64,000 nt of DNA from a virus. This document shows positions 4,290-19,068 of this stretch, piece after piece (the stretch's first letter is position 1; every line of letters starts with the position of its first letter). The DNA is taken from the IMG/VR virus record IMGVR_UViG_3300028706_000553; one strand, written 5' to 3'. Under the pieces are notes generated by a model. The model worked only from the letters and a program-made list of their open reading frames with translations, did no database searches and was not told the DNA's origin. Both the position numbers and the translations under genes were made by a program.

Positions 4290-7200
4290 GTGTCAGGCGT
4301 AAAAACAAATTTTAACATTGCACCATACTATGATGATTTTGATAAAGATAAAAACTTTCATAGGATCTTATTCAGACCTGGTTTCGCAGTTCAGGCAAGG
4401 GAACTTACCCAGATGCAAACCATCTTGCAAGAGCAAGTTACCAGGTTCGGTGATCATATCCTTAAAGAAGGCAGCAAAGTTTTTGGTGGAGATGTAACAC
4501 TCAATACACAAGTTAATTCTTTAAAGTTAGAATCGGCTTTTGATAGTGCTACTGTAACAGTTAGTTCTTTTGAAGGTAAAACTATTACTGGCGGCTCCTC
4601 AGGTGCCAAAGGTTTAGTTATTAGAGCAGAAGCTCTTACTGTATCAGATCAACCTACTTTAATTTTTTCTAAATTAGGTGGTGGAAATTTTTTAGATGGC
4701 GAAACAATTTCTACTTTAGAAACAACACCATATCAAGCTAATACTGTTAGTTTAAGTGGTGCCTCTGGAGTGCAGTATGCTCAGAATACGGCATCTGTCG
4801 CAAGTATTACAGAAGGGTGTTTTTATATAAGTGGATTTTTTGTTTTAAACCCCGCGCAAACTATTGCCTTAGATAAGTATAGCGGTTTACCAACAAAAAG
4901 AATTGGTTTAACAGTTACTGAATCTATTGTTCAAACAGATGATGATTCATCTATTTTAGATAATGCACAAGGTACTGCTAACTATGCGGCACCGGGTGCT
5001 GATAGATTTAAAATGGCATTGACTTTAACATCTTTAGATATAGCAACAACAACTACTGCTACAGATGGAACTGTCACAACTACTTCTAGTACTTTTACAG
5101 AATATGCTGGTGAAAAATTTATAGAATTAGTTAGAATGGAATCTGGTGTTAAAGTTTCAGAAACCAAGTTTCCAATTTATGGGGAACTTGAAAAAACATT
5201 AGCTAGAAGAACATTTGATGAATCAGGTTCATATACTGTAAGACCATTTGGAATACAATTAAGAAATCATAAAGATGGAAATACTGCTTTAATCTCTGCC
5301 GGATTAGAAGCAGGTAAAGCTTATGTAAAAGGCTATGAATATGAAAATATTGCAACACAATATATTGATGTAGAAAGAGGTCGTGATACAGCAAATGTAT
5401 CAGATTATATTGTTGCATCAGATTATGGCAATTCTTTGTATCTTAAAAATGTTTTAGGTACTTTCGATATATCCAAACATGAATTGGTGGATTTGCATTG
5501 TTGTCCTTCCGCTTCTGTTAATGCTATGTCAAATGATACTAATGCGTTAACAAAATACAATCAAACGAAGATGGGAACAGCGAGAATAAGATCGTTTGAT
5601 TGGGAACAAGCAGATCTAACTGCATCTAATACTACACACTTTCATTCAGTATATTCATCTCGAATATATGACATACGTTTAGATAAAACTATCGCCGGTG
5701 AAGTAACTGGTGAAGGTGATGATTTAACAACTCTTGGTGTCCCAGCAGGAATTACATCATATGCAAATGGAGCATATAAGGGCGCAGTGGTAACTGTTAA
5801 TACCACGAACGGCTCTACTGTTTCAAGTGATACAGTTTCGATTGCTGAATATATTGCTATAGGTTCACAACACATAATTAAAGCTAATACTGCTTTATCA
5901 CAAAAAGTATTATCAAATTCAACATTTACTATTTCTTTTAAATTTCAAGATTTAGGTTGTTTGATTGTAAAGCATGCAGCTGTAGATCAATTAACTGCTG
6001 CAAACACAACTTATGTTGTAAAAACAACATCTGCAGATATTGATAAACTATCAAAATTTAATAATGATCCTGAAGGAATAGCCCAATTATCAGGTGTAAG
6101 TAAAAATACATTATTATATCAATTACCATTTTCACCTTTGGCAACTATACCTGATGGGGTTACTTATACATATAAAACATTTCAATCGATTTCTGTACCA
6201 ATGGCAGGTGTGACAACTGTATCGACAGCTTCCGGTGCTTTTATAGGAACAGGCGCTCAGTCCGCATCAACTGCGAAAGAATTGTTTTCAGTAGCTGTTA
6301 AAACAATTGATAATGCCGCCAGCCCACCGGTTGATAATGTAACAGGAGAAGCATTAACTGAAGGGCAGTTATTAAATTTTGATGCATCTACAGGTAGAAC
6401 AGCAACTATTGATAGTCCTACTCAAACAACATTAAATTTAAATACAAAAAGTGGTGCATATCAAGTAGAAGTACTTTCAACTATTAGAACAGCTAATGCA
6501 ACGCCAAGATCAAAAACGTTAACGGTTGGAAATACAACTGTCATAGCTTCAAATACAACTATTTCTAAAGGTCAAGTTCATATTGCTGAGCCTAATAAAA
6601 AGTCCGGTAAAAAAGATAACTTGATGATATCTGATGTTGTTAATATAGCTTATATAATTGATTCTGGTGACCCTGCTCAACCGGTAGGTCAACCGATGAT
6701 AACAGCACTCAAAGATGCTGCATCAACAACTGCCGTAGACGCTACTTCCAGATATGATTTAGATAACGGACAACGAGATAATTATTATGATTGGGCTTCT
6801 ATTACATTAAAGCCTGGTCAACCAGCCCCTGCTGGACAACTATTAATAATTTGTGATCATTTTAGTAATCCTGCTTTAACACCACCAATTCAAGATGCGC
6901 TTGCTGGATATTTTTCAATTACATCATATGCCGACGTAAGTTCAAATACAGGATATCATTATGACCTACAAGGTGTTAAAAGAAAAGGATTTAATTTCTC
7001 TGCTGTTCCAAAATATACAAGTCCTACAACAGGTGAAGAAATTGAATTAAGAGATTGTATAGATTTTAGACCCACACGTTATTCTGCTAATAATGATAAA
7101 GGTTCTAATACTACAAATGATATGACATCTAATAATGCAGCGATTCCTTCTTCACAGTTGGGATCTGCCGGTGGAACACCAGACCCTGAATATACATTTC

Positions 7201-10200
7201 AATTTAATATTCAATACTATTTGGGCCGGAAAGATAAATTAACTCTTTCTAAAGATAGGAAGTTTAATGTAATTAAAGGTGTACCTGCATTAGAACCAGT
7301 TGCTCCTCCGGATGACGACGATTCTATGACATTGTATACATTAACTATTCCTCCATATACTTTTAATACTCAAGATATTAAAACAAAGTATATTGATAAT
7401 AGACGTTATACAATGAGAGATATTGGTAAACTAGAAAAGAGGATTGAAAATTTAGAATATTATACTGCATTATCAATGTTAGAAAAAGAAGCTGCAGCTT
7501 CATCTATTTCTGGCGGATCAACACAAGACTCACTCTTTAATCCTGCCGGTGATAGATTTAAAAATGGTATTTTAGTAGATGGTTTTAAAGGTCATGGAAT
7601 AGGTGACGTTATAAACAATGATTATAGATGTTCAATTGATATTGAAAAGAATGAATTAAGACCTCCATTTAAGACAGATAACTATACATTTCAAATGACG
7701 GATATTGGAGGTTCTAGTAATAATGTTCAATGGCATTATCCAGCACAAGAACTAATAACATTACCTTATACAACTGCTAATTTAGTAAATCAACCATTAG
7801 CAAGTACTTATAAAGGAGTTAATCCATTTGGTTTAGCTCAATTTACTGGTGGTATTAAAACATATCCTGATTCAGATACATGGTATGATACTGAATTCCG
7901 ACCTGAGGTATTAGTTAATATTGAAGGTGTTAATGATAATTGGCAGTTTGGAAATTATCGTGCCGGACATGGATCACAATGGGATAATTGGACTAAAAAT
8001 TGGCATGGCGAACAAATTAACCCAGAACCAGAAATAAGTGTTAAGGATGCCGGTGCAACTTCTATTGGTATAAGAAAAGCAAATCTTATTAACAAAGGAC
8101 AAACACGAAAAGGTATAACTTCAAAAAATATTCCAGACTCAATTAAACGATCATTAGGAAATAAAGTAGCAGATATTTCTATGACATTCTGGATGAAGGC
8201 ACACTTGCTAGGTTCTCAATATACACCAGATGATAATAGAATATATTTTGTAGCAAGAGGATTAAAGCCAACAACAAATGTATATGTATTTTTTGATGGA
8301 GATAATGTATCCGCAAACGTTTATCCAATGCCTTTCTTAACAATTAATGGTGTTGATACAGATAAACATCTAATGTTGGGTGAAACAATATCTGAGGGTT
8401 CGAATGTTGCGCAAATTATACTTCCACAATTAACTACTTCAGGTGGAACCGCAACTGCGTATATTAAAGTAGTTAAGGCATTAGATCTTAATGGTGATAA
8501 TGCTGATCTAGATCAAGCTTTTTCACCAGGTTCAACAACTATTCTTACATCTAATAGTGGTGTTTCCGGAGTCATATCAAATAGAACTGTGCCTACAAGA
8601 GGACAAGCAGATTATATGTCAACTAATCAAGCCGGTGAATTTGCAGGTATTCTTTCTATACCAGCAGGAGCTCACAAATCAGGTGAAAGATTATTAAGAG
8701 TTACTGATCAAGAAATAAATTCTGTTCCAGATTCAACTATGGCAGCAGAATGTACTTACACCGTAAGAGGTTTAGTAGATGGTAGAGAACCAACTTCGAT
8801 TTCAACTAGGCCCTCTGTTTCACGAAGAGAAGATGTCACTAATGAAAATGTAATAACAAGTCCTACTAGTAGAATTGAAGGTTCATCTCAGTGGATGGAT
8901 CCAATGGCTCAAACATTTATTGTTAATAAGAGTAATTATCCTGAAGGGGCTTTTATTAAATCAGTAGATTTGTGGTTTAGACAAAAAGCAACAGCTAATA
9001 GTTCAACGCCGCAATTACCTATAACGGTTCAGATTAGACCACTGATTAATGGATATCCAAGTTCAGGAACTATTATTCCACATAGTGAAGCAGTAAAAAG
9101 ACCAGAAGAAATTAATACTATAGTAACTGCTCCGGATGCTTCAAATACATCTCATTATACAACATTTGAATTTCCTGCACCAGTATATTTAACAGGTGAT
9201 GAATATGCATTGGTTGTTCTTTCAAATAGTTCTGAGTATCAATTATGGACAGCTATACAAGGATTAAGTCCTTTAACTGATACATCCATCAGTCCTAATA
9301 TTAGAATACCTAAGCAACCAAATATTGAAACAATGTATTTACCAACCAATGCGGGCATGCCACAAATGTCTCCAGGTGAATCATTGATGATGAGAGTTAA
9401 TAGGTGTCATTTTACAACACAAAATCAAGGCAACATAATTTTGATGTCTAATACACATAGTCAAAATATGGCCACATCTAATGTTTATATAGATGCATAT
9501 AAATTTAATACATCAGTAATGAATTTTGATAGTACAACAATTAATATGGCATTTAAGACTACTAATACATCTGGTGGATATTCATCAACGAATTACGTAA
9601 CAGCCGAGAAAGATAAAAACGTTAATCTTGAAGAACGAATGATGATGCAGTCTAATACAGCAAATAGTTTTAGTACACATATTACTATGAGATCTACTTC
9701 AAAATTTGTTTCACCATTGATTGATACTTCAAGATTTAGTTTAACTACAGTTGAAAATGATGTTGATAATGCAGCTCTAGCAAATTCAAATATATACATT
9801 ATTAATGCTGGCGCAGCTTATACATCTACAGCAGTAGCTACAGTTTCTGGTGGAAATGGAACAGGTGCAGAAATTGCATTAACACTTTCAGCTGGTGGAA
9901 TTTCGGGTGCAACAGTTACTAACGGTGGTTCGGGTTATACAGAAACTCCAACAATAACAATATCAGATACAGGACATACTGGAACCAATTTCGCAAATGT
10001 TGTTGTAAGTAGTGAATTAGATGCACAAGGTGGACCAATCAATGCTAAATATATTACAAGGAAAGTTAACCTTGAGGATGGTTTTGAAGCAGAAGATATT
10101 AAAGTTATCGTTCAGGCTTATAAACCAGAAAGTGCTAAAATATATGCATACGCAAAAGTTTTAAGTCCTGATGATTCCTCTGCATTTGATGATAGAGATT

Positions 10201-10427
10201 ATATCCTATTATCACAAGAAACAGCTGCTTCTGTACATTCTTTAAATGAAGATGATTATAAAGAATTTTTATTTAAATCACCAAATGATACAATTGATTA
10301 TACTGATGATTCAGGAACCAATTATAAGAAGTTTAAAACATTTTCAATTAAGTTATGTATAACTTCTACTAGTACTTTAAAAGTTCCTAAAGTGAAAGAT
10401 TTAAGAGCAATAGCATTAGATGAATAA
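4290..10427 (+). CDS. Large baseplate/virion structural protein (DUF4815/VrlC-like), 2045 aa
   Basis: N-terminus TNFNIAPYYDDFD...FRPGFAVQARELTQMQTILQ; NAPGADRFK, RRTFDESGSY, RYTMRDIGKLEKRIENLEYYT, DPMAQTF; C-terminus PKVKDLRAIAL; follows gp8; GTG start. Confidence 0.85.
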   Translation: MSGVKTNFNIAPYYDDFDKDKNFHRILFRPGFAVQARELTQMQTILQEQVTRFGDHILKEGSKVFGGDVTLNTQVNSLKLESAFDSATVTVSSFEGKTITGGSSGAKGLVIRAEALTVSDQPTLIFSKLGGGNFLDGETISTLETTPYQANTVSLSGASGVQYAQNTASVASITEGCFYISGFFVLNPAQTIALDKYSGLPTKRIGLTVTESIVQTDDDSSILDNAQGTANYAAPGADRFKMALTLTSLDIATTTTATDGTVTTTSSTFTEYAGEKFIELVRMESGVKVSETKFPIYGELEKTLARRTFDESGSYTVRPFGIQLRNHKDGNTALISAGLEAGKAYVKGYEYENIATQYIDVERGRDTANVSDYIVASDYGNSLYLKNVLGTFDISKHELVDLHCCPSASVNAMSNDTNALTKYNQTKMGTARIRSFDWEQADLTASNTTHFHSVYSSRIYDIRLDKTIAGEVTGEGDDLTTLGVPAGITSYANGAYKGAVVTVNTTNGSTVSSDTVSIAEYIAIGSQHIIKANTALSQKVLSNSTFTISFKFQDLGCLIVKHAAVDQLTAANTTYVVKTTSADIDKLSKFNNDPEGIAQLSGVSKNTLLYQLPFSPLATIPDGVTYTYKTFQSISVPMAGVTTVSTASGAFIGTGAQSASTAKELFSVAVKTIDNAASPPVDNVTGEALTEGQLLNFDASTGRTATIDSPTQTTLNLNTKSGAYQVEVLSTIRTANATPRSKTLTVGNTTVIASNTTISKGQVHIAEPNKKSGKKDNLMISDVVNIAYIIDSGDPAQPVGQPMITALKDAASTTAVDATSRYDLDNGQRDNYYDWASITLKPGQPAPAGQLLIICDHFSNPALTPPIQDALAGYFSITSYADVSSNTGYHYDLQGVKRKGFNFSAVPKYTSPTTGEEIELRDCIDFRPTRYSANNDKGSNTTNDMTSNNAAIPSSQLGSAGGTPDPEYTFQFNIQYYLGRKDKLTLSKDRKFNVIKGVPALEPVAPPDDDDSMTLYTLTIPPYTFNTQDIKTKYIDNRRYTMRDIGKLEKRIENLEYYTALSMLEKEAAASSISGGSTQDSLFNPAGDRFKNGILVDGFKGHGIGDVINNDYRCSIDIEKNELRPPFKTDNYTFQMTDIGGSSNNVQWHYPAQELITLPYTTANLVNQPLASTYKGVNPFGLAQFTGGIKTYPDSDTWYDTEFRPEVLVNIEGVNDNWQFGNYRAGHGSQWDNWTKNWHGEQINPEPEISVKDAGATSIGIRKANLINKGQTRKGITSKNIPDSIKRSLGNKVADISMTFWMKAHLLGSQYTPDDNRIYFVARGLKPTTNVYVFFDGDNVSANVYPMPFLTINGVDTDKHLMLGETISEGSNVAQIILPQLTTSGGTATAYIKVVKALDLNGDNADLDQAFSPGSTTILTSNSGVSGVISNRTVPTRGQADYMSTNQAGEFAGILSIPAGAHKSGERLLRVTDQEINSVPDSTMAAECTYTVRGLVDGREPTSISTRPSVSRREDVTNENVITSPTSRIEGSSQWMDPMAQTFIVNKSNYPEGAFIKSVDLWFRQKATANSSTPQLPITVQIRPLINGYPSSGTIIPHSEAVKRPEEINTIVTAPDASNTSHYTTFEFPAPVYLTGDEYALVVLSNSSEYQLWTAIQGLSPLTDTSISPNIRIPKQPNIETMYLPTNAGMPQMSPGESLMMRVNRCHFTTQNQGNIILMSNTHSQNMATSNVYIDAYKFNTSVMNFDSTTINMAFKTTNTSGGYSSTNYVTAEKDKNVNLEERMMMQSNTANSFSTHITMRSTSKFVSPLIDTSRFSLTTVENDVDNAALANSNIYIINAGAAYTSTAVATVSGGNGTGAEIALTLSAGGISGATVTNGGSGYTETPTITISDTGHTGTNFANVVVSSELDAQGGPINAKYITRKVNLEDGFEAEDIKVIVQAYKPESAKIYAYAKVLSPDDSSAFDDRDYILLSQETAASVHSLNEDDYKEFLFKSPNDTIDYTDDSGTNYKKFKTFSIKLCITSTSTLKVPKVKDLRAIALDE

Positions 10428-10653
10428 GATACAAACCGAAGACCCTCGTTTTGTTAGGGACATACACTCAAAGGCACTTTTAGCCACAGATAAAACTGCC
10501 CTAAATAGACACAGATCACAACGGCTAGCTGTTGAGGCCGCTCGTAAAGAAAGAGCTGAGCATCGAGCAGAGCTTGATAGATTAAGTAATACTGTGGATA
10601 AGATAGAAAAATTATTAATGAATGTTTTAGAAAAGGATAAAGATGGCAGCTAA
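10420..10653 (+). CDS. Conserved small protein following the DUF4815 gene (coiled-coil C-terminus)
   Basis: 77 aa, overlaps both neighbours; RDIHSKALL motif seen at this position in T4-like marine phages. Confidence 0.6.
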   Translation: MNKIQTEDPRFVRDIHSKALLATDKTALNRHRSQRLAVEAARKERAEHRAELDRLSNTVDKIEKLLMNVLEKDKDGS

Positions 10654-12178
10654 TGTAGCGTTATCAGATACGTTTGATTTATGGAGAACACGTACAAATC
10701 AACTATTGATGTACACTCAAACACAGGGTGGAAAAGACGTATTACACATTTCTAATACTACCAATTCAACATCTAATACAACAGGTGCAATTACTTCAAA
10801 TGGTGGTATAGGAATTAAGTCGTCAGCAGTCATCGGTGGTGATTTACTCACACATTCAGGCTTAACTGTAACAAAAGTTTCAAGTTTACAAGGTAATACC
10901 GATATTGGTGACACGAACGCAGATACTTTAACAATTACTGCGAGAATTGATTCTGATACGATACCTTATACCGATGCCGATAAGAATTTCGGTAATAGTA
11001 CATGGAGATGGGGAACAGTACACGTTAGTGGTATTGTAGGTTCAAACTCGTCTGCCTCTATATTAATTCCAACAGGCACTTCCGCTGAAAGAGCAGGTAC
11101 TACAGGTGCAATTAGATGGAATACAACACTAGAAAGATTCGAAGGTAATACAGGAACATTATTTTATCCATTCGGAGGAAATCCTGAAGATCAAGATGGT
11201 GATACACAAATTACTACAGACAACGCAAGTGACGAAGATATAATTAGATTCTTTACTGGTAATTCTTCAACGCAATCAACCGAACGAATGAATCTAGGTA
11301 CATCAGGTAACCTAGCAATCGGAACTGGCTCAACTCTTGGTGATGCGATGTTACACGTTGAGGGTACAGCTAACGTCACCGGCACCGTAAACTTCACAAA
11401 TAGGACTAATTTAAAGGGTAATACGCACGTTACAGGAGGAGCCTGGGCAAACGTTTCTGTATCTGATTATGTTAACTTTGCAACAGAATCTATGACGTTA
11501 GATTCTAATACAGTAATTGTAACCGGTAATTTAGTTGTTCAAGGAACCAGAACATATAACGATACTACTATTATGGTTTCCGAAGATAAAACAATGGTCT
11601 TTGGATTAGCAAGTAATATCTATAGTCAATCAGATGCTAGTTCTGGAACAGTTACCTCCCAGAGAAATAATTCAACTGAGACACACGGATTATCGGTCAC
11701 TGATAAAGTCTTTATTACTGATGCTGGAACTTCTGGTTTAACAGCAGAAGCAATATATACAGTTGCTACAGTACCGACAACCACTACATTTACGTTAACA
11801 GGTTATTCAGGGTCCGGATCGTTTGATTTCGCGAAATGTCATACAGATGCTTCAGCAACCGGCGGTGGTATGATAATACCTGGTGCCACTGTACACAGTG
11901 TATTATATAATAGTACAGTTGGAGGATGGGTTGTTTCTGATGGATTAAAGAGTAACGGCGCTGCCCATTTTACAAGTACAATAAATATGGATGGTGATTT
12001 AGATATCGATGCCGCAGTTGTCCATGATGGGGCTTTCACCCATGATGGGGCATTCAAAACAACAGCAGGTGGAACCGCTGCCGCTAATTATATTTTAAAA
12101 AGTGGAGGCGCAACCGGAGAAAGTTCATGGGTAGCTTTTGGGATATATGATTCATCCGGAACGAGACTTGGACCATAA
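10643..12178 (+). CDS. Tail fibre / baseplate-fibre connector protein
   Basis: N-terminal SDTFDLWRTRTN motif; PTGTSAER...GAIRWNTTLERFEG fibre repeat; Gly/Thr/Ser-rich beta-type composition. Confidence 0.7.
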   Translation: MAANVALSDTFDLWRTRTNQLLMYTQTQGGKDVLHISNTTNSTSNTTGAITSNGGIGIKSSAVIGGDLLTHSGLTVTKVSSLQGNTDIGDTNADTLTITARIDSDTIPYTDADKNFGNSTWRWGTVHVSGIVGSNSSASILIPTGTSAERAGTTGAIRWNTTLERFEGNTGTLFYPFGGNPEDQDGDTQITTDNASDEDIIRFFTGNSSTQSTERMNLGTSGNLAIGTGSTLGDAMLHVEGTANVTGTVNFTNRTNLKGNTHVTGGAWANVSVSDYVNFATESMTLDSNTVIVTGNLVVQGTRTYNDTTIMVSEDKTMVFGLASNIYSQSDASSGTVTSQRNNSTETHGLSVTDKVFITDAGTSGLTAEAIYTVATVPTTTTFTLTGYSGSGSFDFAKCHTDASATGGGMIIPGATVHSVLYNSTVGGWVVSDGLKSNGAAHFTSTINMDGDLDIDAAVVHDGAFTHDGAFKTTAGGTAAANYILKSGGATGESSWVAFGIYDSSGTRLGP

Positions 12179-12198
12179 TATAAAGACGATGAAAACAA

Positions 12199-13668
12199 AT
12201 GGCATCACCGTTAAAGGTTATAAATTCTGGATCGGATCTTCAACAAATGACCGATGCAGAAATAGACAATATGATAGTTCCTCTTGTTTTGCAGGAGTTC
12301 GCCTCTAATCAAACATACAATGTTCGAGGTAACGTAACTGCATATGCAAACAACTCTGGGAACGCCGGCGGATTTGATAATAGACTCCGAAATGATGATG
12401 TAGGAGATCATCCTATTTCAGCTGGCAATTTCACTACAACTTCCTGGTCTATTCAACAAGAGCAGTCCAACGCTGCTGGAACTACAAATGTAATTTATCC
12501 CACTAAGTGGGTTACATCTGGTGGTAAGTTGCAGCGAATGACTACTGCTGAATTACAAACTACTATTTTAGCTAGAGTTGCTAATCATTGGAAAACAACT
12601 ACCTATCCCGTTGGTGGTTATTATTTTGGTACTGCTGCACCCGATGCAGATACATGGATTTATTGTGGTGATGTTCTAACAGAAACTTATAGACAAACCG
12701 GTACAGATAGTTCAACTGATTTTAAGTTATGGAGAAAAACAGGGCCAACCTCCACTTCTGGTTCAAGACCTGTTTATAATAGAACAGGTAATGATGGCGT
12801 CCAGGAATTGTCCGATAATGATATGAAATCGTTAGCGGCAGAATGGAGAAACTATCTATTTAATGTTGAATCTATTGGTCATTATGAAATGGTTTCCGGT
12901 TCATCAGCACCAGGAACAGGTACTTGGACACAAGTAGGAAGTTATGTAGATTATTTAACGGATACAGGTAATGTAATATATTCTCAAGGATACGAAGGAA
13001 TATATTCAGCTGGTTATGAAGGAATATATTCTAATCAATATGAGGGATTGTATTCCGGACAATTTACAGGAATGTATTCAGGACAATTTACTGGTATATA
13101 TTCAGGGCAGTTTGCAGGTATATATTCGCGAGGTTATGAAGGATTCTATTCACAAGGATATTCCGGTGGTTATGGAGGTGGTTACCAGGGACCATATGTA
13201 GGTTCTTATCGATCAGGATTTATGGGTGATTATCGTGGTGACTATGAAGGAAGTTATATAATGACCTATGGATCAGGTAGTGAAGAAGGATTAAACCCTA
13301 GAGCTTCATCTGAAGGTCCTGCATATACTGGCACATATTCAGGTACATTTTCAGGAATTTATTCCGGTACATTTTCAGGAATTTATTCTGGGGTATATTC
13401 AGGAATTTATTCAGGACAATATTCAAATCAATATGCCGGCTTTTTTTCAAATCAATATGAAGGCATTTATTCACAAGGTTACCAAGGAATATATTCTGGA
13501 GGATTTGAAGGCATTTATTCATCAGGTTTTGAAGGTTTTTATAGTATGTTTTATGTTGGAATTTATAGTAATCAATATACTGGAATTTATAGTAATCAAT
13601 ATACAGGTTTAACAGTGCTATCATCATTAGGTTCTGCAACGTACACATTTTGGAAGAGGGTTGCGTAA
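12199..13668 (+). CDS. Virion fibre-like protein with Tyr/Gly/Ser tetrad repeats (paralog 1)
   Basis: The C-terminal ~211 aa consist of (Y/F)xxx tetrads around a central NPRASSEGP loop; ends YTFWKRVA; lies in the structural cluster. Confidence 0.7.
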   Translation: MASPLKVINSGSDLQQMTDAEIDNMIVPLVLQEFASNQTYNVRGNVTAYANNSGNAGGFDNRLRNDDVGDHPISAGNFTTTSWSIQQEQSNAAGTTNVIYPTKWVTSGGKLQRMTTAELQTTILARVANHWKTTTYPVGGYYFGTAAPDADTWIYCGDVLTETYRQTGTDSSTDFKLWRKTGPTSTSGSRPVYNRTGNDGVQELSDNDMKSLAAEWRNYLFNVESIGHYEMVSGSSAPGTGTWTQVGSYVDYLTDTGNVIYSQGYEGIYSAGYEGIYSNQYEGLYSGQFTGMYSGQFTGIYSGQFAGIYSRGYEGFYSQGYSGGYGGGYQGPYVGSYRSGFMGDYRGDYEGSYIMTYGSGSEEGLNPRASSEGPAYTGTYSGTFSGIYSGTFSGIYSGVYSGIYSGQYSNQYAGFFSNQYEGIYSQGYQGIYSGGFEGIYSSGFEGFYSMFYVGIYSNQYTGIYSNQYTGLTVLSSLGSATYTFWKRVA

Positions 13669-15503
13669 TGGCTACTGACGGAAGGGTAATGAGAATCTAT
13701 CCACTGGGTAGTAACACAGAATTAGCCGCAACAGAAAGTGGAAAATTATATATAGGGTCAGTAACTGAAACCGGTTCCGGAGCTTCTGCTAATATTGGTA
13801 AAATTACAACTATTACATCTACACCGGGAGCTGGAGTATATGATAATGTATTTTCAGCCGGCGATTATCTTGTTATTAGACATCAACAATATGGAATGTT
13901 AGGTGTTGGTCAATGGATTAAAGTTCAATCTGTTTCAAGTACGGGAGCCAGTACAGAATTAACTTTAGAAGATGGTACTGCAGAATTTTACAAATATTTA
14001 AATTCATCCGGAGCAAGTTATACAGGACAAACTAGCGTAGGTATTACATTTGAAAAGGTAATGGGTTGGGGTATTAGACAAATGACCAACGACCAAATTG
14101 ATGATTCCATAGTTCCAGAAGTTTTTAATAGATGGGGATCCTATACAAAAGGAACTGCAACACATGATGATTGGAAAAGTCATATAAGACCTTTAGCTGG
14201 TACTTCTAATACATCTGGTTATGATTTATGTGGAACTGTTGGTGAAAGATATAGAAGCCCAGATGTTGTAGGCGATCATCCAGTAGCAAATAATGTAACT
14301 ATAACTAATTATTCATTAGAACAATGTGTTGGAACAAAGCCTTTTAACGGCGCATCAAATGCAACACATGTTGATGATTTAGATAGCACTGTAGAATTTT
14401 TAGGTGCTAATACAGGTGGATCTCACGGCGATAAAGTATACGAAATGTCAGACGCAGACATTGCGGCCGGCCCTGTTATTGCTAGGTGTAATGCATATTT
14501 TACTTCAGCATCAAATACTGTTGGTTCTTATCATATTGGAACTGCTGTGGGAGATTCAGATACTGGTTCTTGGCATGATGAAACATGGTATACAGATACA
14601 GTAATAACATCGTCAGGTTCAGCAAACGTTGCATATCATCTTTATAGAAAAGAATCAGGAGCGGTTAGAGGATGGTCAACTTCAAGATCTTTATCAAATG
14701 CTAATACAGAAGCAAGAGCCTCAAATTCTGTTACACATTGGACTGGTGCTAATGCTGACTATATTGCTGTAGGAAATTATCCACGTGCAGCAACGGATGA
14801 GGTAATATACTTACCAATTTATAATCAAGGTAATAATCAAGCTAAAGAATCAAATACTGTTCAAGCCTATGGACATTCTGCAACTTTACAAAATACTGCA
14901 GATGATGCTGGTATACATTTGCATTGGATTAAACATTTATTGATATCAAATGCTGGTGAATATAGTTTAGTAACAGGTAATACAGCTCCTGGAATTGGTA
15001 CATGGTCATTTTGTGGTAATGTATATGATAAAGTTACAACAGTTGGGGATGTAATATATTCTCAAGGATATGAAGGAATTTATTCTGCAGCATATGAAGG
15101 CATTTATTCATTAGGATATGAAGGCATTTATTCATCCGGATTTCAAGGTGGATATGCTGGTGGATATGCTGGTGGATATGCTGGTGGATATGCTGGTGGT
15201 TACGCCGGTGGATACACTCAAACTTATGGATCTATGGCTGAGTCTCCAAACCCACGGACTTCCTCAGAAGGTCCTACATACTCTGGAACTTATTCAGGCA
15301 CTTATTCTGGAACGTATTCAGGCACTTATTCTGGAACGTATTCAGGCATATTTTCGGCTGGCTTTATTGGAATTTATAGTAATCAATATGGTGGAATATA
15401 TTCTGGACAATATGCTGGATTCTATAGTAATCAATATACTGGAGTAACGGTATTTTCTACTTTAGAAACACAAAATTATAGTCTTTGGAAAAGACACGCC
15501 TAA
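13668..15503 (+). CDS. Virion fibre-like protein with Tyr/Gly/Ser tetrad repeats (paralog 2)
   Basis: Likely start is the ATG at 13668 (TAATG coupling to the upstream stop). Shares QMT..ID..IV, GDHP, APG.GTW, NPR.SSEGP and WKR.A motifs with paralog 1. Confidence 0.7.
   Translation: MATDGRVMRIYPLGSNTELAATESGKLYIGSVTETGSGASANIGKITTITSTPGAGVYDNVFSAGDYLVIRHQQYGMLGVGQWIKVQSVSSTGASTELTLEDGTAEFYKYLNSSGASYTGQTSVGITFEKVMGWGIRQMTNDQIDDSIVPEVFNRWGSYTKGTATHDDWKSHIRPLAGTSNTSGYDLCGTVGERYRSPDVVGDHPVANNVTITNYSLEQCVGTKPFNGASNATHVDDLDSTVEFLGANTGGSHGDKVYEMSDADIAAGPVIARCNAYFTSASNTVGSYHIGTAVGDSDTGSWHDETWYTDTVITSSGSANVAYHLYRKESGAVRGWSTSRSLSNANTEARASNSVTHWTGANADYIAVGNYPRAATDEVIYLPIYNQGNNQAKESNTVQAYGHSATLQNTADDAGIHLHWIKHLLISNAGEYSLVTGNTAPGIGTWSFCGNVYDKVTTVGDVIYSQGYEGIYSAAYEGIYSLGYEGIYSSGFQGGYAGGYAGGYAGGYAGGYAGGYTQTYGSMAESPNPRTSSEGPTYSGTYSGTYSGTYSGTYSGTYSGIFSAGFIGIYSNQYGGIYSGQYAGFYSNQYTGVTVFSTLETQNYSLWKRHA
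15147..15194 (+). repeat. Four perfect tandem copies of GGTGGATATGCT encoding (GGYA)n
   Basis: Units start at 15147, 15159, 15171 and 15183, followed by degenerate copies. Confidence 0.9.
15291..15348 (+). repeat. Tandem 24-nt repeat TATTCAGGCACTTATTCTGGAACG (2.4 copies) encoding (YSGT)n
   Basis: Units at 15291 and 15315, with a partial copy at 15339. Confidence 0.85.
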
Positions 15504-15535
15504 ATATAACTAATAACATATTATGAAGAGGAATT

Positions 15536-16117
15536 ATGGCAGAAACTGCAGAAGTCGCTGAATCCACCGAGTGGAGTCACGATACAATGATTGAAGGACT
15601 ATGGCGCTCTGGTGATAAACAAGAAGTTTCCATTTTATATGAACGAGAAGATAAATCTCGATATTCCGGACAAGCAGAAGAAGGAACAAAAGAATGGAAA
15701 GATTTCTTTTTTAAATTCACTACCGAACAAGTAGACTCTTTTACAGATGCACATCGTGCTCAAAGAGAAGCCCACGGGCCAAGGCCTGATCATCAAAAAC
15801 AAATTCAAAAAAGAGAAGACAAACAAGCAGTTGAAAGGAAAAAAGCAGCTGATGAATTAGAATCTCTTTTTCGTGCAAAATTAGAAGCTTTTGAAATACC
15901 AGAAGTTAGAGACAGTGAAAATCGAGATTTAAGATCTCGTATTAGAAAATCTAAATCATTAACAGAAATTTCTGCGTTAGTTGCTTCACTCATTACTCTA
16001 TCTATTATCAGGGTAACCTTAAAAGCAGAAGACCTTTTAGATGAAACACCAGAAGTAAAAGAAACTTCTGGAACAATTGAAGAAGTTGCTAATGAGGTTC
16101 CTAAGGATGAGAACTGA
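15536..16117 (+). CDS. Hypothetical charged protein
   Basis: 193 aa with an SD-like GAGGA; C-terminal LFRAKLEAFEIPEVRDS...RIRKSK motif; function unknown. Confidence 0.6.
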   Translation: MAETAEVAESTEWSHDTMIEGLWRSGDKQEVSILYEREDKSRYSGQAEEGTKEWKDFFFKFTTEQVDSFTDAHRAQREAHGPRPDHQKQIQKREDKQAVERKKAADELESLFRAKLEAFEIPEVRDSENRDLRSRIRKSKSLTEISALVASLITLSIIRVTLKAEDLLDETPEVKETSGTIEEVANEVPKDEN

Positions 16118-16910
16118 TGAAGGTTTTTTATTAGTAGCTACTAACCATAAACCGTATCACACTGCTGCACAACAGTTAGCTGATAGTTTAAAAGAATTTG
16201 CACCTGAACATCCGGTAATACTTTTCACAGAAGATAAATGGGTAGATTGTCCTGGAAATCATATTTTTGATGAAGTCCATGGAGGTATGCCTAGTTCTAA
16301 TCGCGCTAAATTACTAGCATTAAAAGATACTCCTTTCGATATTACATGTTATTTAGATTCTGATATGGTATGTGTTCATCCGGATGCACCTTTAATTTTT
16401 AAAGGTTTAAAAGATGGATATGATATGGCGTGGACTAAAATTAGAACATATGCCGCAGCTATGGTTTGGTGGGATAAAAAACAATTAAAAGTCCCACATG
16501 GTGGAATGTGCTTATATAGAAAATCAGATAAAATGATTTCTTTTATGGAACAATGGTGGGAAAATTGGTGTTGGAAAAAGAATCAAGTAGCAGAATGGGA
16601 CGAAAGATGGAATGGCAAATATCCTTATTGGGAAACCAGAGGATGGGATCAGTTTCCTTTACATTTAATGATGGGCGCTATTAGACAAGATGATCCATGG
16701 TATAGACCTGATATAAAATGGCATTGGGTTTATGGCGGCGATCCACCCTGTACACCTGAAACAGATGATTGGAATGATGGAAGTGATTCAAGGTGGAATT
16801 GGATTATTGGATACCATCATGATAGGGAAAATATGAAACCAGAAGATATAGTATTTCGCGATTATTCGTGTTTATTATTTAAAAGTCAATATCAAAATGG
16901 AAGAGTATGA
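16107..16910 (+). CDS. Glycosyltransferase, GT-A fold (GT8/nucleotide-diphosphosugar transferase-like)
   Basis: DxD motif in YLDSDMV; HGGMCLY and WDQ motifs. Start placed at ATG 16107 (GAGG upstream); the ORF track start is 16077. Confidence 0.65.
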   Translation: MRTDEGFLLVATNHKPYHTAAQQLADSLKEFAPEHPVILFTEDKWVDCPGNHIFDEVHGGMPSSNRAKLLALKDTPFDITCYLDSDMVCVHPDAPLIFKGLKDGYDMAWTKIRTYAAAMVWWDKKQLKVPHGGMCLYRKSDKMISFMEQWWENWCWKKNQVAEWDERWNGKYPYWETRGWDQFPLHLMMGAIRQDDPWYRPDIKWHWVYGGDPPCTPETDDWNDGSDSRWNWIIGYHHDRENMKPEDIVFRDYSCLLFKSQYQNGRV

Positions 16911-17707
16911 AACATACAGAACATATTACTAATTTTTGTAATGATCCAGATATTTTAAATATTTTAGAAGAACTTGGTGAATATTTAGACGGTTTAGATT
17001 TAGATGCAATGAAACTTCGACCAGGGCGTCAAAATAAACCTGAAATGAATGCTGTCATTTCAGATAATTATTTAAGTACATTTAGAAAAACAGTTAGGCC
17101 AGGACCTCCTTGGCATCAAAAAATAGTAGATCTTCTATTAGATTTAAAACAAAGAAAACGTAATACAAAAGTAGCAGACCTGGCAACTGCTTTAGGAAAA
17201 AGAATAGGAGCAAGAAAACAGGCTCTCAGTGCAATATATCCTCCAGGTGGCTATGTTGGGTGGCATACTAATGCAGATGTTCCGGGTAGAAATTTATTAT
17301 TTACTTGGTCTCAAAAAGGTGAAGGTGTTTTAAGATATAAGAATCATACAAAAGGATTCTCTTTTGATATACCTGATCACAAAGGTTGGAATATAAAATC
17401 ATTTGATTGGTTTAGTCATGGTCAATCTGAAAAGGAAGGATATACATGGCATGCTGCAGGATCAAATTGTTTAAGAGCAACCCTTGCTTTTGTTATTCAT
17501 AATAATCCAATGTCCAACGAAATGTTAGAGGATGACTTCAATTTAACATCTTGGAGTCCGGGTTGCTTTATAAGTGATACTGATTTAAAATATGAATCTA
17601 AGTGGTGGGAGAATACTAAAGATAGTATTATCAATTATGAATTAAGTGATGAATTAATAAGTGAACTTGAAACAAGCCCTTCAGGTGTAAAATATGGTCC
17701 TCGATAA
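16907..17707 (+). CDS. 2OG-Fe(II) oxygenase-like / cupin protein
   Basis: YPPGGYVGWHTN (H-x-N), distal WHAAG and RATLAF match the double-stranded beta-helix pattern. Confidence 0.6.
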   Translation: MKHTEHITNFCNDPDILNILEELGEYLDGLDLDAMKLRPGRQNKPEMNAVISDNYLSTFRKTVRPGPPWHQKIVDLLLDLKQRKRNTKVADLATALGKRIGARKQALSAIYPPGGYVGWHTNADVPGRNLLFTWSQKGEGVLRYKNHTKGFSFDIPDHKGWNIKSFDWFSHGQSEKEGYTWHAAGSNCLRATLAFVIHNNPMSNEMLEDDFNLTSWSPGCFISDTDLKYESKWWENTKDSIINYELSDELISELETSPSGVKYGPR

Positions 17708-18281
17708 GAAATCCCCTTATATAAGAATTCAAAGTGGATGGTTTAAAAAGAATAAAGATAAGATTATTAAAGAATTTGAACCTTTAGTTGAAGAAGGAAC
17801 GACTGTAGGTGGAAATAAAAACGAAAAAAGAAAATCAGATGTTCATCTTTTTGATATTTGGAGATTAGAATTAACTGATTTTAAAAAAGTTATTATTTTT
17901 AAAGTTAAAGAGATATTTACTACAGAAAATAAAAATTATGGATTTGATTTAGATTATTCTACTGTAAATATTCAATTTACTAGATATCAAAAAGATGATT
18001 TTTATGAATGGCATGCAGATGATGATTTACTGAATACACATATAAAAACACATAGTATAAGAAAATTAAGTATGGCAATGCCTTTAAATATTGGTGAATT
18101 TGAAGGTGGTGAATTTGAAATTAAATTATCCCCAAGTGAAAATGCAAAAACAAGAAAAATACCTATAGAGCCTGGAAATATAATAGTATTTCCTAGTTTC
18201 TTAGAGCATAGAGTCCTCCCAATAACCTCAAATACACGTTATTCTTTAGTGGCGTGGATCTCAGGACCTCCATGGAGATAA
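17694..18281 (+). CDS. 2OG-Fe(II) oxygenase (PKHD/prolyl-hydroxylase-like)
   Basis: YEWHADD (HxD), RKLSM, FEGGEF, FPSFLEHRVLPIT, RYSLVAW. Confidence 0.9.
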   Translation: MVLDKKSPYIRIQSGWFKKNKDKIIKEFEPLVEEGTTVGGNKNEKRKSDVHLFDIWRLELTDFKKVIIFKVKEIFTTENKNYGFDLDYSTVNIQFTRYQKDDFYEWHADDDLLNTHIKTHSIRKLSMAMPLNIGEFEGGEFEIKLSPSENAKTRKIPIEPGNIIVFPSFLEHRVLPITSNTRYSLVAWISGPPWR

Positions 18282-18284
18282 ATA
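18277..18284 (+). promoter_or_regulatory. Late promoter variant GATAAATA upstream of gp13
   Basis: NATAAATA about 40 nt upstream of the gp13 ATG. Confidence 0.5.
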
Positions 18285-18324
18285 CAATATATGTAGACAG
18301 AAAATGTATTGTAGGATATGAACC

Positions 18325-19068
18325 ATGGCAAAACCGCAAACTCGCGAACAATTAAAACAATACTGCCTCAGAAGTTTAGGTCACCCAGTTATAGAAGTTA
18401 ATGTTGATGACGATCAATTAGAAGATCGCATTGACGAAGCTTTACAAGTCTGGAATGACTATCATTATGATGGGTCGGAAAAAATTTATTTAAAACATCA
18501 AGTTACATCAGATGATATTACTAACGAATATATTACCGTTGGGGAATCAACTATAAGTATAATCAAAGTACATCCTATTGATTCAACAACAGGAAACATT
18601 AATATGTTTGATGTGAGATATCAATTAAGATTAAATGATATATTTGATTTGAGTAAACAGCAGCTTTCAGGATATACTATGGCTATGCAACACTTGAGTT
18701 TAATAGAAAATTTATTTAATCAATCTCCTTCTTTCAGATTTAATAGACATACAGATAAAGTTTATCTTGATGTTGATTGGGATAAAGAATTGGTTGTTGG
18801 AAAATACTTATTATTTGAATGTTATAAATCCGTAGACCCAGAAGAATTGACCGATGCATATAATGATCTTTGGCTAAAAAAATATATATCTTCATTATTT
18901 AAAAGACAATGGGGATCTAATCTATTAAAATATGAAGGTATGCAATTACCCGGTGGCACTACATTAAATGGTAGACAAATTTTTGATGATGCAACAACTG
19001 AATTACAAATGTTGGATGATGAAATCTTTACGAAGTATCAATTACCTGACGACTTTATGGTAGGATAA
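18325..19068 (+). CDS. gp13: Neck protein gp13
   Basis: MAKPQTREQLKQYCLRSLGHPVIEVNVDDDQLEDRIDEAL; KRQWGSNLLKYEGMQLPGG. Confidence 0.92.
   Translation: MAKPQTREQLKQYCLRSLGHPVIEVNVDDDQLEDRIDEALQVWNDYHYDGSEKIYLKHQVTSDDITNEYITVGESTISIIKVHPIDSTTGNINMFDVRYQLRLNDIFDLSKQQLSGYTMAMQHLSLIENLFNQSPSFRFNRHTDKVYLDVDWDKELVVGKYLLFECYKSVDPEELTDAYNDLWLKKYISSLFKRQWGSNLLKYEGMQLPGGTTLNGRQIFDDATTELQMLDDEIFTKYQLPDDFMVG

Follow-up and report, generated by a model that had tools for sequence, protein, structure and literature searches.

Why should two neighboring viral genes each encode a pair of repeat arms that are matched in length within one protein and differ in length between the two? The question is raised by p1 (12199–13668) and p2 (13668–15503), two paralogous genes on the plus strand of IMG/VR record IMGVR_UViG_3300028706_000553, from which we analyzed a stretch of 64,000 nucleotides (hereafter the window). 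A first, sequence-only reading of this locus had proposed that both chains fold back on themselves as long hairpins whose flanks meet at a base, and our analysis upholds that proposal. We give a probability of about 0.7 to an explanation in which both genes encode structural proteins and belong to the host-recognition (tail-fiber) cluster of a marine T4-like myovirus, and in which each protein ends in an out-and-back antiparallel stalk that is closed at its base; the figure applies to all of these parts jointly. The fold-back of the arms is well supported by sequence comparison and structure prediction: the arms co-vary, breaks in the repeat are mirrored between them, the facing tetrads are complementary and the flanking strands are modeled with confidence.

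Matched arms in p1, p2 and their relatives

The layout of the repeat follows directly from the translations. In p1, arm 1 consists of 24 tetrads (aa 261–356; 12979–13266), followed by a tip loop of 19 residues, YGSGSEEGLNPRASSEGPA (aa 357–375; 13267–13323), and by arm 2, again of 24 tetrads (aa 376–471; 13324–13611). In p2, for which we number residues along a TTG-initiated open reading frame (ORF), 14 tetrads (aa 470–525; 15057–15224) lead to an 18-residue loop, YGSMAESPNPRTSSEGPT (aa 526–543; 15225–15278), and 14 tetrads lead back (aa 544–599; 15279–15446). The counts of 24/24 and 14/14 given in the sequence-only reading are borne out, and its boundaries (12979–13611 and 15057–15446) coincide exactly with the tetrad-loop-tetrad residues. 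The first position of the tetrad is aromatic (Y/F) without exception (48/48 in p1, 28/28 in p2) and the third is glycine in 34/48 tetrads of p1 and 20/28 of p2. Serine occupies the second position in half of them, and the fourth is variable. At the DNA level the arms have a period of 24 bp, an octad such as YSGQFTGI.

We collected homologues in two ways: a word-indexed search returned 84 relatives, and an exhaustive HMMER search with the C-terminal module of p2 returned 144 clusters (50% identity, E ≤ 0.001). Arms are exactly equal in 39 of the 48 homologues with a simple arm-loop-arm layout, which range from 4 to 29 tetrads, and the counts of arm 1 and arm 2 rise and fall together (Pearson r = 0.97), just as a fold-back had been expected to make them do. 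Equal arms are also found in every one of the 31 genes (31/31) from 17 independently assembled IMG/VR loci, where a p1-like and a p2-like gene are always adjacent. Pairs with 24/24 in the first gene have 14/14, 15/15 or 17/17 in the second, those with 21/21 have 8/8, 9/9, 10/10 or 16/16, and 20/20 is found with 15/15. Every related phage thus shows the two different, discrete lengths first noticed in the window, with 20, 21 or 24 tetrads per arm in p1-like proteins and 8 to 17 in p2-like ones. The p1-like arms are longer every time, and the lengths of the two proteins do not track each other. On these counts, the balance between arms is far beyond chance.

Mirror symmetry and the module behind the stalk

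One could argue that equal arms merely reflect duplication of one arm. After a duplication, irregularities should follow one another in arm 2 as they do in arm 1. In distant relatives, the register of the repeat is broken within the arms by 6-residue steps and 17-residue bulges. In a set of 18 such relatives with compact stalks, arm 1 contains 34 breaks, of which 32 have a counterpart in arm 2 equally far from the base, mostly to the residue; direct-repeat order accounts for only 16 of the 34. The mirrored positions are, for example, 51 and 73 in one relative (P0025) and 19, 37, 55 and 77 in another (P0042). The mirrored order speaks against mere duplication.

The tetrads themselves are mirrored as well. 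Counted from the base, a 'YS' tetrad stands opposite a non-'YS' tetrad in 22 of the 24 rungs of p1 and in all 14 rungs of p2 (14/14). Pooled over 32 balanced proteins, this fraction is 0.79 in the mirror register, 0.32–0.36 at odd shifts and 0.67–0.70 at shifts of two; for p2-like proteins with short arms, no other register does as well. The arms also mirror each other in the types of tetrad found close to the base and close to the tip. In p2, five YAGG units of arm 1 lie beside the tip and opposite about five YSGT units of arm 2. They are encoded by two different 12-bp tandem arrays that adjoin the tip and that we regard as young. Since the facing arrays differ in sequence, they point to separate but matched expansions beside the tip.

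The origin of the stalk becomes apparent from the rest of the chain. p1 (489 aa; homologues with 70–93% identity) consists of three tandem copies of a module of ~90 residues, each with a helix bearing a Q.MTD.E(I/L) motif, and carries its 24/24 stalk in the last copy. According to hhalign and a motif scan, modules 1 and 2 (aa 1–100 and 101–190; 12199–12768) each combine a helix with the motif (L/V)Q.M(T/S)D.E(I/L) and a short beta-hairpin with an LWRK end. The N-terminal part of module 3 (12769–12978) includes the N-flank APGTGTW...DTGNVI (aa 237–260), and behind the stalk the C-terminal tail TVLSSLGSATYTFWKRVA (13612–13665) is predicted to close the base. When the stalk is removed, hhalign relates module 3 to module 2 with a probability of 99.1% (E 7.5e-19); the values are 97.9% for modules 1 and 2 and 97.2% for modules 1 and 3. 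The segment TW....D..TET...(turn)...DFKLWRKTG, which forms a short hairpin in the model of module 2, is aligned with GTW...D.LTDTGNVI-(stalk)-TV...YTFWKRVA of module 3. The tail TVLSSLGSATYTFWKRVA falls on the module 2 strand SSTDFKLWRKTG, and the insertion point of the stalk is exactly the turn of the short hairpin. Hence, the stalk appears to be the vastly stretched terminal hairpin of the last module. The sequence-only reading had recognized a hairpin and missed that it is expanded from a hairpin of a repeated ~90-residue module.

AlphaFold2 monomers modeled with alignments place p1 residues 1–262 and 468–489 at a predicted local distance difference test score (pLDDT) of ~85–96, with ~90 for the base. 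Long strands are modeled at 243–269 and 460–487 in p1 and at 446–461 and 594–609 in p2. The N-flank of p1 forms part of the first of these and its tail (pLDDT 85–96) lies inside the second; in p2, the N-flank APGIGTW...TVGDVI (14985–15056; pLDDT ~88–90) lies inside the third and the C-terminal tail TVFSTLETQNYSLWKRHA (15447–15500) inside the fourth. We infer from the alignments and the models that the two flanks of each protein pair with each other. The flank motifs first read from the window are present, except that the C-terminal pattern was one residue short: it reads L....Y..WKR.A and not L...Y..WKR.A.

These results can be combined into a single mechanism. Each protein would be built from tandem ~90-residue modules, and insertion of (Y/F)-x-G-x tetrads would have stretched the terminal beta-hairpin of the last module into a long antiparallel stalk. 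N-flank (GTW...VI) and C-terminal tail (TV...WKR.A) would together close the base, and the conserved YGS..NP(R/Q).SSEG loop would cap the far end. In each rung, an arm-1 tetrad would pair with the arm-2 tetrad at equal distance from the base, so that tetrads must be gained or lost in both arms together. If the strands are fully extended, a rung would measure ~1.3 nm and the stalks ~32 nm in p1 and ~19 nm in p2. Attached to the virion, they would form two thin projections of different fixed lengths that touch the host surface during adsorption. New here are the derivation of the stalk from a tandem module, the complementarity of the rungs and the statistics on mirrored breaks.

Several observations weigh against this explanation. 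First, the stalk itself has a pLDDT below 50 in the monomers of both p1 and p2, so that the pairing comes without a confident three-dimensional model; structure prediction, which the sequence-only reading had named as a check, delivered the base and the flank strands and failed on the arms. Second, the set of metagenomic proteins contains unbalanced relatives (23/21, 19/21, 8/10, 15/14, 27/34, 9/7, 29/30 and 12/13). Two of these, 23/21 and 19/21, have one YSGQFTGI octad more or less in arm 1 than relatives with 21/21, which identifies them, at the level of sequence, as slippage variants; some of the unbalanced relatives may be assembly errors. Because variants by one octad exist, balance is a strong rule and not an absolute one, and the exactness claimed from the window alone holds for the 39 of 48 homologues and the 31 IMG/VR genes but not for cases such as 23/21, 19/21 and 8/10. 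Third, two relatives break the layout altogether. P0012 (19/9), from one short contig, changes at the loop from an arm 1 of p1 type (19 tetrads) to an arm 2 (9 tetrads) and tail of p2 type, and is probably a chimera, formed either by recombination between p1 and p2 or during assembly. The p2-like P0038 has 18 continuous tetrads and no tip loop, as might result from recombination between its two arms. Fourth, a crude mirror test on 82 relatives with multiple runs gave a modest result (102 observed vs 76 ± 10 shuffled). It is weak because the midpoint is shifted by aromatic runs that arise by chance in long central regions, and we replaced it with the test on compact stalks. Fifth, the proteins P0060–P0071 carry ~250 N-terminal residues of Y-x-G-x tetrads with no evident mirror symmetry, which suggests that the repeat may not need an intrachain hairpin. 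These are 626-aa proteins on phage contigs of up to 134 kb, and unrelated fiber-like domains follow their tetrads.

Needles, swapped arms and one-way folds

Could the stalk be a trimer? In the alternative that survives best, three chains would form a six-stranded needle, each running out and back as in the tip of T4 gp37, with an exposed ladder of tyrosines and a receptor-binding NPR(A/T)SSEGP tip. All of the out-and-back evidence applies to such a needle, the genes lie within a tail-fiber cluster, and phage fibers are usually trimers. To our knowledge, a lone two-stranded ribbon with ~100 residues per arm would be unusual. However, the arms contain no histidine (none in aa 261–471 of p1 or aa 470–599 of p2) and hence no His-x-His sites of the kind that, by binding iron, stabilize the gp37 needle. 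No PDB chain is matched by sequence (a profile search against PDB sequences gave nothing below E 0.39), and gp37 is absent among the listed Foldseek and VIA matches, although the stalk itself was not modeled in these queries. The likeness to gp37 drawn in the sequence-only reading is thus reduced to an analogy. In addition, the base of p1 already consists of three tandem homologous modules in one chain, which could replace a trimer.

The tip and the faces of the stalk bear on the same question. The loop residues YGS..NP..SSEG are invariant or nearly so in both paralogue groups, and few segments are as well conserved as the loop, whether between the paralogues or between phages. This is not the pattern of a receptor site that is specific to a host, and the loop may instead serve as a structural cap. 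Distant relatives have a plain YGG turn in its place, or long irregular segments rich in Tyr, Thr and Gly. A Pfam search for a tip domain in eight long relatives found no match, and their centers resemble an irregular stalk of that composition and not a globular domain. Along the stalk, the Tyr/Gly face is invariant and the opposite face variable. This argues for a packing face, because such invariance fits burial at least as well as display, and the tyrosine ladder that had been read from the window is possibly not displayed. Taken together, we regard the trimeric needle as possible but on the unlikely side.

At the other extreme, the pseudo-threefold base within one chain could mean that the ribbon stands alone. 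The stalk would then be a free-standing, single-chain, two-stranded 'tyrosine zipper' beta-ribbon of 20–33 nm on a pseudo-trimeric single-chain base: a natural rigid rod without a conventional core, programmable in length by rungs of ~1.3 nm, kept in register by complementary tetrads and widespread in abundant marine T4-like phages. We put this forward as a speculation and are inclined to doubt it.

It is also possible, if less likely than a hairpin within one chain, that the arms pair between chains, arm 1 with the arm 2 of another subunit, and give a domain-swapped or head-to-tail polymeric fiber. Equal arms, mirrored breaks and rung complementarity would be satisfied equally well. However, the N-flank and the C-tail are homologous to both strands of the intrachain hairpin of module 2, both flanks are modeled confidently beside one base domain, and a swap would hardly fit into relatives that have 4–6 tetrads per arm and a turn of 8 residues. 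We consider such an arrangement improbable. The least probable reading, and a very poor one in our view, is a one-way repeat fold (a beta-solenoid or a triple beta-helix of the T4 gp5C type) or a disordered, sticky, FUS-like [G/S]Y[G/S] region, in either case with arms equalized by duplication: the period of the DNA corresponds to an octad, a feature shared with the gp5C beta-helix, model confidence in the stalk is very low and P0060-type proteins have unmirrored runs, but irregularities follow mirror order (32/34 vs 16/34 direct), arm numbers shift together in many separate lineages, tetrad types are mirrored near base and tip with complementarity best in the mirror register, and the N-flank and C-tail would end up ~30 nm apart despite their homology to a closed hairpin.

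The phage, its probable fiber genes and known systems

The window belongs to a T4-like myovirus, with PHROG matches to terminase, tail sheath, portal, scaffold, major head protein and baseplate wedge. Its major capsid protein is only 63–65% identical to those of OM43 phage Melnitz, cyanophages and Pelagibacter phage HTVC008M, which on sequence grounds makes this an uncultured marine lineage. Ahead of p1 and p2 lie, in this order, a gp8-like baseplate wedge protein (PF09215; 2541–4268), a 2045-aa DUF4815 protein (phrog_358; 4290–10427) that resembles VrlC, the giant protein of marine T4-like phages, a 77-aa ORF, and a 511-aa protein rich in Thr, Gly and Ser (10643–12178) with a weak match to Phage_spike (E 0.048). 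The counterpart of the 511-aa protein in Phage C48C1 is annotated as tail fiber protein. Behind p2 follow a 193-aa charged protein, two proteins without a family, a 2OG-Fe(II) oxygenase and a 247-aa ORF (18325–19068). The last of these sits where a syntenic relative locus has Phage_T4_gp13, and a Pfam search of this ORF returned no family. Relatives retain the same gene order, one distant relative only up to p1. In T4, gp9–gp12 and wac are found here. p1 and p2 would most likely serve as baseplate fibers or whiskers of two fixed lengths. The region in which they lie, from VrlC to gp14, has been described as a host recognition cluster, with tail fibers placed immediately downstream of VrlC (PMC7029224).

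The genes that directly follow p2 form a conserved cassette (15536–18281) of the highly charged 193-aa protein, a 277-aa and a 266-aa protein, for which Pfam gave no family, and the 195-aa oxygenase (PF13640, E 3e-13). The same order is present in a relative locus (L002). Pfam did not bear out a glycosyltransferase in this cassette. The cassette could modify the Tyr/Ser-rich stalks.

The boundary between p1 and p2 deserves a correction. p2 is listed as an ORF that starts with TTG at 13650, and the junction reads GCGTAATGGCT. As homologues start with MATDG, the p2 start is the ATG at 13668, which gives a protein of 611 aa, and the TTG is probably unused. The stop codon of p1 and this start share one base in TAATG (13666–13670), and the overlap suggests translational coupling of the two paralogues. 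In addition to modules with a 14/14 stalk in the last, p2 has an N-terminal beta-barrel-like domain (residues ~22–135; 13668–14090) that p1 lacks. Its best fold match is 9jlf_E from the head-to-tail interface of phage FCWL1 (Z 8.3, 82 residues, root-mean-square deviation [rmsd] 2.2). Many flavin-reductase-type barrels score just below, so the domain is best taken as a generic barrel.

Pfam gave nothing above cut-off for p1 or p2, and PHROGs no family. Foldseek searches against PDB and BFVD found nothing at E ≤ 0.001, and structure and feature searches of the ESM Atlas only uncharacterized viral clusters; the nearest named cluster, Gp10_C (0.76), was treated as chance. Literature searches found no description of the tyrosine/glycine tetrad repeat, and the 'tentaclins' (PMC10743442) are unrelated C-type lectin/Ig proteins. 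Against cultured phage genomes, blastn and tblastn gave no match to p2 and one record for p1, Phage C48C1 (OQ984149). Its 3347-aa 'hypothetical protein' (8983–19026 of locus L001) is the only family member among deposited phage genomes. The protein combines Q.(F/M)T..(Q/E) helices in an N-terminal module with a GTW flank and a C-terminal YTLYVRVA tail. It contains many tetrad runs of up to 70 units with other segments between them, and lies in the same baseplate-fiber synteny. The family occurs in marine T4-like phage genomes of ~140 kb.

If the stalk folds as we propose, it would be a protein rod design without a representative in PDB, Pfam or PHROGs, and matched rungs of four residues would fix the length of its hairpin in digital steps. 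With 144 clusters, the family is a large one. p1 and p2 are candidates for the fibers of these marine T4-like phages. They also make it possible to test whether the two halves of a gene compensate for each other's changes in length, and possibly offer a scaffold for designed nanorods of defined length.

How does such a stalk compare with known systems? Collagen and polyglycine II have glycine at every third residue, and the arms have a period of four with an aromatic residue at position 1 and glycine at position 3. Closer in appearance are shafts built of repeats, among them the T4 gp5C triple beta-helix, with its octapeptide VxGxxxxx repeat, and the adenovirus triple beta-spiral. Shafts of the gp5C type share with p1 and p2 a short repeat containing glycine, an 8-residue period at the DNA level, a thin projection and a length given by repeat number. 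However, they run one way and have no central turn, matched halves or mirrored irregularities, whereas p1 and p2 have a conserved central loop and mirrored irregularities.

For the base, the best fold matches of p1 are the beta-prisms 3tow (MABP), 2qp2 (the C-terminal domain of Plu-MACPF) and 8b6v (Mp2Ba1), with Z 5.8–6.4 over 113–122 residues and rmsd 3.5–3.9. The base of p2 matches the same prisms with Z 5.8–6.2 over 120–126 residues and rmsd 3.9–4.1, and both sets of scores may be due to chance. The three tandem homologous modules of p1 are what one would expect of a pseudo-threefold prism. In perforin-2 (P2 domain, 6sb1 and 6u23), one hairpin of this beta-prism domain is elongated and reaches the membrane. 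However, there is no sequence similarity, a Z of ~6 is within the chance range of the tool, and we know of no beta-prism with a hairpin of 56–96 residues per strand. The base is possibly beta-prism-like, and we treat this as a lead from the models. A physical precedent for a lone Tyr/Gly ribbon comes from tryptophan-zipper hairpins and the single-layer sheets of OspA, which indicate that cross-strand aromatic pairs can stabilize a two-stranded antiparallel ribbon without a hydrophobic core. By analogy, tyrosines may pair across the strands of p1 and p2, although these precedents are designed peptides of 12–16 residues or short natural sheets and the stalks are natural and 200 residues long.

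The closest parallel in architecture remains the needle domain of gp37 at the tip of the T4 long tail fiber (PDB 2XGF). gp37 is a homotrimer with iron bound by His-x-His repeats and a globular head at its tip; p1 and p2 differ from it in their strict four-residue Tyr/Gly repeat, their short conserved tip loop and their lack of histidine. What they have in common with it is an origin in a T4-like fiber region and the proposed course of the chain, out to a distal tip in mid-sequence and back, with the N- and C-proximal segments side by side. It is this reversal at the tip to which the balanced arms, the mirrored breaks, the complementary rungs and the hairpin-homologous flanks of p1 and p2 all point.

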